Below, one piece after another: positions 11,518-14,124 of a DNA stretch of 53,436 nt. Numbering within the stretch: position 1 is the stretch's first letter; every line of letters begins with the position of its first letter. This stretch comes from an uncultured Streptococcus sp. (lineage in GTDB: Bacteria; Bacillota; Bacilli; Lactobacillales; Aerococcaceae): NCBI GenBank assembly GCA_963515505.1, contig CAUPXN010000001.1, positions 1 through 53,436 on the forward strand, in the 5' to 3' direction. The position numbers were made by a program, and so were the translations under genes. The notes under the pieces are model-generated. The model saw only the letters and a list, made by a program, of their open reading frames with translations. It had not been told where the DNA came from and did not search any database.

Positions 11518-11574
11518 TTTTTAAGTACTCTATAAGCTTTATTTCATATAAATTTCATATGAAAAAACTATTGT
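11518..11574 (+). promoter_or_regulatory. htrA promoter with response-regulator-type direct repeats
   Basis: TTTAAG-N5-TATAAG (11520-11536), then ATTTCATA-N3-ATTTCATA (11541-11559), 9 bp before -10-like TATTGT (11569-11574). Confidence 0.6.
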
Positions 11575-12865: not shown

Positions 12866-13268
12866 ATTTCCACAAGGTTATCCACAAAAATGTGGATAAG
12901 TCTGTGGAAAACTGTGGGTTAACCCCGTTGTCAAGTCTGTGAAGTGGAAAATCGGTGTTGAAAATGGATAGGCTAAAAATGGCTTAATTATCGGATTTTA
13001 TTGAAAAAAGTTATTCACATGATAAATTTTTATTGTGGATAACTTTGGTGATTAACTGTTTAAAACGTTGATATAACAGCATTTTGATATACACAAAAAG
13101 TGTGTGGATAACTGTGGATAACTCGCATCTTTCCACCTTTTAGAAATATAACAATTAGATAACAAATAAAAATTTTGAATCAATATCTAGTGTTTTTCAT
13201 AAAAAAAGCCCAAAATTTAGGGGCGAACATGTGTACATGTGGATAACTTTGTGGATAACTGTGGATAA
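12866..13268. promoter_or_regulatory. DnaA-box cluster
   Basis: Perfect TTATCCACA/TGTGGATAA at 12878, 12891, 13034, 13103, 13113, 13238, 13250 and 13260, plus one-mismatch boxes at 12903 and 13011. Confidence 0.92.
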
Positions 13269-13331: not shown

Positions 13332-13811
13332 ATGAATATCACAATTGTGAGTGTAGGAAAACTGAAAGAAAAATATTTAAAACAAGGAATCGACGAATAC
13401 GCGAAACGCTTAGGTAGCTACTGCAAGTTCCAGGTTGTGGAAGTGCCAGATGAGAAAGCTCCTGAGAATTTAAGCGACAAAGAGATGGAACAAGTGCTCG
13501 AAAAAGAGGGCGAACGTATCCTTTCTAAAATTAAAGATGGTGATGTCGTTGTAGCGATGGCGATTGAAGGTGACTTAGTGAGTTCAGAACAACTCGCAAA
13601 AGAGATGGATACCTTCGCGCTTCATGGGAAGAGCTCAATGGTCTTTGTCATCGGCGGCTCTCTTGGGTTGAGTCCGGCCGTGAAAAAACGTGCCGACCGC
13701 AAGATCTCATTTGGCCGTATTACGTTGCCGCATCAATTGATGAGACTCGTTCTAACTGAGCAAATTTACCGTGCATTCCGTATTAATGCCGGACATGCAT
13801 ATCATAAATAA
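13332..13811 (+). CDS. rlmH: 23S rRNA m3Psi1915 methyltransferase RlmH (YydA/OrfX)
   Basis: [38 protein letters not shown] end. Confidence 0.97.
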
Positions 13812-13859
13812 GTAAAGATTCTCATAGAAAAAGTGAAAAGAAAGTGCAAAATGAAAATT

Positions 13860-13896
13860 GTATTTTCATAGTATTTTCATAATGTGCCTCTATACT
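13860..13896 (+). promoter_or_regulatory. Putative activator-dependent promoter of the candidate sRNA
   Basis: Perfect tandem repeat GTATTTTCATA x2 (13860-13881), 9 bp before -10 TATACT (13891-13896). Confidence 0.65.
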
Positions 13897-13901
13897 TTAG
13901 T

Positions 13902-13981
13902 TATTCCCAAAGAGAATATTTATCCTCCCAAATAAATATTTCTAATCCTTTTTTCCACCGGCCGTGAGTCGGTGGTTTTTT
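13902..13981 (+). ncRNA. Candidate trans-acting small RNA with anti-SD loop
   Basis: Own -10 box; 9-bp stem AATATTTAT/ATAAATATT with loop CCTCCCAA; terminator CCACCGGC-CGTGA-GTCGGTGG-T6; no ORF. Confidence 0.6.
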
Positions 13982-13999
13982 ATTTTCTTTAAAAAAGGA

Positions 14000-14028
14000 T
14001 TGATTGAAGAAAATCTCCGTACTATACT
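14000..14028 (+). promoter_or_regulatory. Sigma-A promoter of tRNA-Ser
   Basis: TTGATT-N17-TATACT ending 8 bp before the tRNA 5' end. Confidence 0.75.
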
Positions 14029-14036
14029 AGAATCAT

Positions 14037-14124
14037 GGAGAAGTACCCAAGAGGCTGAAGGGGTCGCACTCGAAATGCGATAGGTCGTGAAAGCGGCGCG
14101 GGAGTTCAAATCTCCTCTTCTCCT
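14037..14124 (+). tRNA. tRNA-Ser(CGA), long variable arm, CCA not encoded
   Basis: Acceptor stem GGAGAAG/CTTCTCC, anticodon arm TCGCA-CT-CGA-AA-TGCGA, T-loop TTCAAAT. Confidence 0.95.

Follow-up and report, generated by a model that had tools for sequence, protein, structure and literature searches.

Introduction

Multicopy small regulatory RNAs (sRNAs) that carry anti-Shine-Dalgarno (anti-SD) sequences and answer to two-component systems are known, and the accounts of them given here follow excerpts of the cited papers. The streptococcal csRNAs (Rfam RF02379) are activated by CiaRH from a direct repeat just before the -10 (CiaR box NTTAAG-N5-TTTAAG), and their several copies act additively (PMC3091779). 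The LhrC clan of Listeria (LhrC, RF00616, and rli22, RF01457; clan CL00114) occurs as tandem copies under LisRK control, and LhrC blocks lapB at its SD (PMC4132741). In Enterococcus, deletion of sRNA 84 left 18 of 25 changed genes lower, so this RNA appears mainly to raise transcript levels; it was called unique to Enterococcaceae, with its regulation not known (PMC12642391). The PieRS system of Listeria, called YclJK in Bacillus subtilis, recognizes the consensus TTCAT-AG-TTTGT-TCATATTTN, which was tested by electrophoretic mobility shift assay (EMSA) at prsA1 and also precedes htrA; no sRNA member of the regulon is described in the excerpted text, in which the string "srna" occurs 0 times (PMC9545042). 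Finally, in the csRNA3/phiOXC141 case a prophage replaces the 3' stem-loop of an sRNA and competence falls (PMC9764711).

Here we analyze a non-coding unit downstream of rlmH in a 53,436-nt stretch of DNA (the window), which is contig C1 of its own assembly (G000; 1.17 Mb, 73% complete) and whose relatives within the genus carry the source names Granulicatella elegans, G. seriolae and G. balaenopterae. Our preferred reading, to which we give a probability of roughly 0.72, is that the unit encodes a trans-acting multicopy sRNA that is activated by a YclJK/PieRS-type two-component system and acts on SD sequences as csRNA and LhrC do, while belonging to neither family. Judged from sequence, what is new would be a different regulator, a wide and unrecognized distribution, and use as a phage attachment site. 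A literature search found no description of the family, of YclJ/PieR-regulon sRNAs or of the attachment site, within a coverage that left most subscription papers outside; the supplements of the enterococcal sRNA atlases and of the sRNA 84 preprint may list some relatives under other names.

Results

A probable self-contained RNA gene between rlmH and tRNA-Ser

The gene order around the element is walR-walK-yycHIJ-htrA, then rlmH, the sRNA unit and tRNA-Ser(CGA), where we take the three genes between walK and htrA to be yycHIJ. The features of the locus are:

11542 to 11574, + strand: box and -10 (TATTGT) at the same spacing before htrA, a co-regulated gene of protein quality control; joint top matrix score, also in G013 and G022
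13332 to 13811, + strand: rlmH, upstream neighbor; NCBIfam RlmH score above cut-off
13864 to 13882, + strand: direct-repeat activator box, two 8-mers with an 11-bp period; conserved columns in 24 aligned copies, PieR consensus match
13891 to 13896, + strand: -10 hexamer TATACT, 8 nt past the box; alignment, same spacing in 63 of 64 units of other genera
13903 to 13983, + strand: predicted sRNA, ~80 nt; fold z-score, models R1 and R2, +1 placed at the A 7 nt past the -10
13903 to 13911, + strand: 5' single-stranded AUUCCCAAA, first UCCC tract; invariant or near-invariant columns in alignments A1 and A3
13915 to 13940, + strand: stem-loop 1, loop CCUCCCAA (anti-GGGAGG); fold, loop kept though arms vary in paralogues
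13945 to 13954, + strand: linker AUCCUUUUUU (anti-AAAAAAGGA), single-stranded; unchanged in all 15 aligned copies
13955 to 13983, + strand: intrinsic terminator; terminator scan, 5 of 8 pairs changed on both sides, 94% of cells paired
13919 to 13958, + strand: empty prophage attachment core (attB); 40-bp core duplicated in G003, 38-bp in G022
14000 to 14124, + strand: tRNA-Ser(CGA) (tRNA 14037 to 14124) with its own promoter-like site; tRNA, Rfam and promoter scans

A preliminary description of this DNA had reported TATACT at 13891 to 13896 followed by three C-rich tracts, a 9-bp stem with an 8-nt loop and a terminator, and sequence inspection and a terminator scan place all of these exactly there. 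The 5' segment reads ATTCCCAAA with TTCCC inside it, stem 1 is a perfect 9-bp helix (AATATTTAT, 13915 to 13923, with ATAAATATT, 13932 to 13940) around the 8-nt loop CCTCCCAA (13924 to 13931), the linker is ATCCTTTTTT in the DNA, and the terminator stem (13955 to 13975) is followed by a T run. The predicted fold of 13903 to 13983 has an energy of -18.8 kcal/mol (z -3.49), with 0 of 200 dinucleotide shuffles as stable, and leaves both loop and linker unpaired. The window copy thus has two UCCC sites (5' end and loop), an AUCCUU linker and a terminator loop without UCCC; the anti-AUG CAU that is present in most relatives and in csRNAs is missing from it. The further claims that the unit has no open reading frame (ORF) and that the tRNA has its own promoter also hold: the + strand of the unit has no ATG, with GTG codons only inside the terminator, and the promoter-like site of the tRNA is TTGATT-17-TATACT at 14000 to 14028.

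At the gathering threshold, Rfam recognizes only the tRNA in the window, and no sRNA family reaches its cut-off. The sub-threshold comparison gave 13 matches at E<=10, the best-scoring sRNA being Ref84 (RF02846; 25.5 bits, E 0.46, against a cut-off of 52). That the minus strand reads GGGAGG, and that Rfam types Ref84 as antisense, could also suggest an RNA that serves a small peptide gene on the other strand as its antitoxin or antisense partner. No conserved minus-strand ORF follows GGGAGG in the window or the aligned paralogues, however, and an antisense ORF of at least 50 aa occurs in only 2 of 27 units of family f9 (see below); we consider this reading extremely improbable.

The transcript data cover the locus thinly. 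RNA-Seq run X6 yields one 186-nt contig (13894 to 14079, depth 3), which starts 9 nt before the predicted +1, runs into the tRNA and crosses both predicted RNA ends; run X1 covers only rlmH, and two raw-read runs (X7 and X16) derive from other organisms and have no reads on the unit. Because the scan detects the first terminator after the rlmH stop (13811) only at 13955, rlmH read-through probably stops at the sRNA terminator too.

Two other stretches of the neighborhood deserve mention. The htrA-rlmH intergenic region (12866 to 13268) holds eight perfect TTATCCACA boxes in ~400 bp, as against 24 in the whole assembly; we assume TTATCCACA to be the DnaA-type box consensus, and the region is a candidate DnaA-box cluster or part of an origin region. 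The 3' end of rlmH (13794 to 13811) presumably resembles the orfX attachment sequence of staphylococcal SCC elements; no insertion at this SCC-like point was seen among the loci examined.

Copies and covariation within Granulicatella

BLAST with the window unit gave matches in 35 of 36 other genus genomes (two of these matches miss the RNA). Model R2, which includes genus copies, had matches in 42 of 44 genus genomes, one to three in each, and part of these matches are attR halves; the two genomes that it missed, G014 and G016, have a longer sibling RNA behind the same box. In paralogues elsewhere the similarity spans ~13864 to the terminator and is lost outside, and copies lie after rlmH, a flavoprotein gene, a CobW-like GTPase gene and others. 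The second copy of the window's own genome (C6:32795-32877, equivalent to L076:1501-1583) lies behind the flavoprotein gene; just past it, in convergent orientation, is a skipping-rope RNA (L076:1628-1706; 65 bits, above cut-off). Because promoter and RNA are kept as a unit at unrelated loci, this conservation exceeds chance.

Both the paralogues and the stem covariation that the preliminary description had looked to were found: the RNA is multicopy in the genus, and in alignment A3 (15 copies) 86% of cells are paired and 7 of 15 pairs are changed on both sides, a level reached by 2 of 500 shuffles, with all slid controls lower than the true register. The terminator shows more covariation (5 of 8 pairs) than stem 1 does (2 of 7), in counts taken over copies that are kin rather than independent. 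When copies were folded singly, 11 kept stem 1 with different arms, and L080 lacked the C-rich loop; RNAalifold, run with one over-long input sequence, did not recover stem 1.

These copies bear on the possibility that there is no independent RNA at all, and that upstream genes simply end in a conserved 3' UTR or terminator module, kept as a phage attachment site; a version of it, with the region as nothing but the rlmH 3' UTR, was what the preliminary description had set against its own proposal. The absence of another rlmH terminator, the several paralogues that closely follow genes and the X6 contig that spans both predicted RNA ends would all fit such a module. It accounts poorly for the box and -10 at fixed spacing in copies behind unrelated genes, for Vagococcus tandem arrays that repeat the whole unit with no intervening gene, and for phage cores that are seen only at the rlmH copy, and we judge it very unlikely. 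The proposal of a self-contained non-coding unit with unpaired anti-SD tracts is instead supported, with promoter, loop and terminator kept jointly in paralogues behind different genes, and Granulicatella very probably has a genuine gene for a small regulatory RNA at 13903 to 13983.

The longer sibling RNA (L332:1500-1620, also L311, L313, L315, L317, L322 and L331) is ~115 nt long (z -7.2), lies upstream of an RsmC-like gene behind the same box, and has nested stems with several CUCCCAA/CCUCCUAA tracts. Its best Rfam match is csRNA (36-38 bits against a cut-off of 57), and it was not found in the window's own, 73%-complete assembly.

A probable activator box of the YclJ/PieR type in place of a -35

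While the -10 of the preliminary description stands, that account missed that the promoter has no -35: a sigma-70 scan found none for TATACT at 13891, and the direct repeat TTTCATAG-tat-TTTCATAA (TTTCATAG-N3-TTTCATAA) sits in its place. The columns TCA(T/C)A-N5-TTCA(T/A)A are conserved in 24 aligned copies, and the window box is identical at 16 of 20 positions to the published PieR/YclJ operator (TTCAT-AG-TTTGT-TCATATTT). Within 13819 to 13869 there is also an extra TCTCATAG half-site ~44 bp upstream of the box, of a kind also seen in relatives, and an inverted repeat, ATGAAAAT-tgt-ATTTTCAT, that overlaps the first half-site of the box.

When a matrix from the unit promoters was scanned over the window's own genome, 68 sites passed, and the top five lie at htrA, an ABC exporter (C5:6711), the window sRNA, its paralogue and a yclJ-like operon (C50:4573); the two RNA sites among these lie in or near the matrix training set. 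The yclJ-like regulator (C50:3756-4463) has PieR as its best NCBIfam model (299.9 bits against a cut-off of 450) and is 56% identical to Listeria PieR, and the neighboring kinase has PieS as its best model, also below the Listeria cut-off. The likeness to the published PieRS/YclJK regulon (PMC9545042) therefore extends over the operator sequence, the htrA and ABC-exporter members and an orthologous regulator.

In three Listeria genomes a strict promoter pattern found 13 sites, where its reversed control found 0; they include the published PieR consensus and positions ahead of a PrsA-like gene and of ABC genes next to pieR. In five Granulicatella genomes it found 23 sites against 1 for the control: 10 short RNAs, 5 long siblings, 2 htrA, 1 yclJ-like gene, 1 ABC permease, 1 other regulator and 3 with no clear target. 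Non-coding units thus follow 15 of the 23 sites, as the way the pattern was built dictates for 10 of these. Less favorable to this reading, the box stands directly before the yclJ-like gene in only 2 of 12 loci examined, both from Granulicatella. A YclJ-like protein at E<1e-90 was found in 8/8 genomes of family f8, 8/8 of f2 and 6/7 of f5; in 7 f4 genomes searched there was no YclJ orthologue, the best matches being 44% identical.

An RNA of the same anatomy could nevertheless be driven by another OmpR-family regulator, VncR-, LisR- or CroR-like, or by more than one. A VncR-like regulator closes the ABC operon behind one of the top boxes, a regulator gene follows another box in G035, LhrC promoters have TCA(T/C)A-like repeats further upstream, and the PieR model score of the C50 regulator is below its cut-off; a LisR orthologue or similar regulator may also be absent from view, because the assembly is only 73% complete. 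Against this stand the 16 of 20 positions shared with an EMSA-tested consensus (PMC9545042) and the distribution of the two proteins, the YclJ-like one being widespread as listed above and the VncR-like one patchy in the genus. We regard control by such a regulator as unlikely, and a YclJ/PieR-type activator remains the preferred one. The VncR-like protein in particular is disfavored as controller, as it was not found in three of five genomes tested (G035, G051 and G066), all of which have boxed copies.

Two further boxed loci were noted. From C5:6711 onward (L057), the boxed operon comprises two ABC permeases, an ATPase and the VncR-like regulator. In Listeria (L343:1531-1610; G082:C1, after 933438), a PieR-type box precedes a short non-coding unit whose terminator loop is CU-rich; the unit has no Rfam match at E<=1 and is a candidate PieR-controlled sRNA.

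Relatives in other genera

The preliminary description had raised the possibility of an undescribed family in this lineage. Although no Rfam family reaches its cut-off, the RNA is not isolated, and the comparisons below support its placement as a shortened branch of a wide Ref84-related group. Model R1, built from Granulicatella RNAs only and without the promoter (its terminator helix is one column off, which probably reduced sensitivity), matched 16 of 151 genomes of the order, namely 5 of the genus and 11/11 of Vagococcus (g14). The Vagococcus copies, which score 36-44 bits on Ref84, often form tandem arrays ~195-250 bp apart with no gene between copies. At E<=0.01 the RF02846 model had matches in 28 of 61 genomes, only 8 of which, all from family f3, were above cut-off, and in 0 of 2 genus genomes. 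R2 matched 52 of 101 genomes (13/13 of f8, 13/13 of f2, 12/13 of f3, 8/12 of f5 and 6/12 of f1), with nothing at E<=0.01 in f4, f6, f7 or f9.

A pattern scan of GTDB, in which the CUCCUUUU linker of other genera was part of the pattern, returned 96 stretches; among the 80 listed, 62 are Vagococcus, Carnobacterium, Desemzia, Pisciglobus or Marinilactibacillus records and 18 come from other taxa. Relatives with equal box spacing come from these five genera and from Aerococcus and Trichococcus, whose copies carry the box. In a set of 64 Lactobacillales units, scored with those having <75 nt upstream skipped, 62 have a terminator, and in 63 the best-scoring box lies 8 nt ahead of a -10. The box score is at least 8 bits in 29 of the 64, as against 0.16% of shuffles, and the 35 below 8 bits mostly have a weak upstream half-site. 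None of the 18 units from other taxa reaches 8 bits, and only one has a terminator, on what looks like a misplaced Vagococcus contig. Because the promoter is in neither the model nor the pattern, the box in distant units is independent support. One unit nearly identical to that of Vagococcus L129 lies on a 5-kb contig (L142) in a record named Desulfovibrio, a probable contamination.

Family f9, by elimination presumably the Lactobacillaceae, has the core motif in 41 of 121 genomes. Since a ribosome-binding site with its AUG would give the core motif when read on the complementary strand, individual units were inspected: of 27 units in 24 loci, 21 have a half-site at the exact spacing, and in eleven loci the units matched no family.

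With Vagococcus and Carnobacterium as intermediates, homology with the Ref84 group is well supported by the sequences. Like Ref84, the window RNA has a single-stranded 5' part, a stem-loop, the CUCCUUUU linker and a terminator, that is, two stem-loops with UCCUUUU before the second, and the Vagococcus, Carnobacterium and Marinilactibacillus relatives score 36-47 bits on a model whose cut-off is 52. Unlike Ref84, the Granulicatella RNA does not reach that cut-off and lacks the A/C-rich leader and UUUUCAUU; the conserved 5' ACCAACAACAACC-UUUUUAUUUUUCA region of Ref84 is absent in the short Granulicatella copies but present in the Vagococcus and Carnobacterium relatives. Ref84 proper (L090-L097), in turn, has an ordinary -35, no YclJ-type box, and has mostly lost the CCUCC loop. 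Separate from Ref84 proper are the family f3 units L262 (G071:C45, ~79357), L245 (G086:C4:168769-168847) and L258; they have a YclJ-type box, an A/C-rich leader and the CUCCUUUU linker, lack stem 1, and have no Rfam match at E<=0.2. Enterococcus has a unit that carries the box and lacks stem 1.

Comparison with csRNAs and the LhrC clan

Of the analogues named in the preliminary description, the csRNAs fit and, together with LhrC, are the closest; RsaE/RoxS is not, and its model is not among the 13 Rfam matches at E<=10 for the window copy. Like csRNAs, the RNA is multicopy, has a direct-repeat activator just before the -10 and is accompanied by a co-regulated htrA (PMC3091779), and it shares with them an AU-rich stem with a CCUCC(U/C)AA loop followed by AAUCCU, as well as unpaired anti-SD sequences. 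Unlike csRNAs, its box is of the TCATA type rather than TTTAAG, there is no RF02379 match at E<=10 (cut-off 57 bits), and it has no anti-AUG tract; none of the six OmpR-family regulators in the 73%-complete assembly has the CiaR recognition helix as given in the excerpts of PMC3091779. R2 found no csRNA in two genomes of f4, a family that we equate with Streptococcus because it has CiaR boxes and csRNA matches.

With the LhrC clan the group shares tandem copies and two-component control (PMC4132741), and the order of parts is the same, with an A/C-rich leader, a stem with a CU-rich loop, a CUCC(C)UUUUU linker and a terminator. LhrC differs in being LisR-dependent, with its element upstream of -53, and in having three UCCC sites (loop A, linker and terminator loop) where the window RNA has two. 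Against a cut-off of 110 bits, the window RNA has no match to the clan at E<=10, and a relative from Trichococcus reaches 33 bits. R2 has a single match at E<=1 in each of two Listeria genomes, LhrC or rli22, at E values of 0.57 and 0.67 that are not significant. Homology with LhrC and csRNA is thus only hinted at by the sequences, and the likeness may be convergence, because the same function can shape short pyrimidine tracts.

A bolder, rather doubtful possibility is that csRNAs, the LhrC clan, sRNA 84 and the Granulicatella RNAs form one old Lactobacillales superfamily of anti-SD RNAs for envelope stress. The widespread YclJK/PieRS would possibly be its original controller; CiaRH would have taken over in streptococci, where the f4 search above yielded no YclJ orthologue, LisRK in Listeria and another promoter in Enterococcus, and phages would repeatedly use its 3' half for attachment and reshape its terminator. 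Hints in this direction are the LhrC-clan matches of R2 in Listeria, the csRNA match of the long sibling, the Aerococcus copies with a csRNA-like tract and the boxed variants in family f9.

Predicted mode of action

Target prediction over 1029 crude gene calls gave a start-region preference of -3.75 kcal/mol, compared with -2.63 +/- 0.84 kcal/mol for shuffled RNA. It yielded no target specificity above shuffles, and the ranking follows strong SD sequences; we take the top predicted genes to be HtpX-, ComFC-, SepF-, FtsH- and PrsA-like.

In the mechanism that we favor, the activated YclJ/PieR-type regulator would bind the direct repeat at the -35 place under envelope or secretion stress, and transcription would start near 13903, together with that of htrA, the ABC exporter and, in Granulicatella, the regulator's own operon. 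The unpaired UCCC, CCUCCC and UCCUUUUUU tracts would pair with Shine-Dalgarno regions. Stem 1 may open for longer pairing, with its 5' arm and loop complementing GGAGGAUAAAUAU, as has been shown for LhrC with lapB (PMC4132741). Such pairing would mostly lower the translation of envelope and secreted proteins, and the several copies would act additively, as csRNAs do (PMC3091779).

The role of repressor, which the preliminary description had also proposed, is an inference only, and this sign is weakened because deletion of sRNA 84 mostly lowered transcripts (PMC12642391). A YclJ-driven RNA could instead mainly stabilize or activate mRNAs, bind a protein or serve as a sponge: adhesin transcripts fell in the sRNA 84 deletion (PMC12642391), several similar pyrimidine tracts could bind a protein, and target prediction gave no specific signal. 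We think this quite unlikely: the core that the relatives conserve, UCAUU-N-UACUCCUCCAA, reads as a canonical SD-spacer-AUG in its reverse complement, LhrC blocks lapB at its SD with the same layout (PMC4132741), and Ref84 proper has mostly lost the CCUCC loop. Anti-SD action remains our preferred reading.

A phage attachment site in the 3' half of the gene

The rlmH copy is also a site of prophage integration. Elements of 34.5 kb (G003, 40-bp core) and 32.5 kb (G022, 38-bp core) lie inside it, their duplicated cores corresponding to window positions 13919/13921 to 13958, and their integrases are 90% identical. Both are siphophage-like, with integrase, terminase, portal, capsid, tape-measure and lysin genes recognized in their ORF lists. 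In G015 the core stands at either end of a 34.2-kb contig, and an attP arrangement was found in 4 of 6 IMG/VR loci with the integrase, whose closest GenBank phage relatives are at most 42% identical. A whole-RNA pattern gave 0 matches in viral contigs, as expected because attP lacks the RNA's 5' end.

With insertion in the 3' half, the promoter and every pairing tract are retained, and the terminator is exchanged for another. At attL, promoter and RNA are intact to the base of the terminator, and phage sequence builds a new one, with a whole-RNA fold of -22.2 kcal/mol compared with -18.8 kcal/mol for the native form. Of 32 loci examined, 31 have promoter and linker, comprising 25 native, 5 attL and 1 cut at the core. 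Eight native-terminator loci adjoin phage-arm sequence, which points to integration remnants. Between the sRNA terminator and tRNA-Ser, several genomes (L007-L015) carry 0.3-1.5 kb of phage leftovers, including prophage-end genes and an integrase fragment, so that by its sequence this region looks like a scarred integration hotspot. The arrangement resembles csRNA3/phiOXC141, where a prophage likewise inserts in the gene and replaces the 3' stem-loop (PMC9764711).

Discussion

The unit downstream of rlmH would provide a testable RNA arm for the widespread and poorly understood YclJK/PieRS system, parallel to CiaRH-csRNA and LisRK-LhrC. The group around sRNA 84, reported as family-specific, extends to many genera, and the promoter signature finds members that Rfam misses. 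At the attachment site, temperate phages appear once more, and independently, to have integrated in the gene of a regulatory RNA and rebuilt its terminator, a change that in pneumococcus altered competence.
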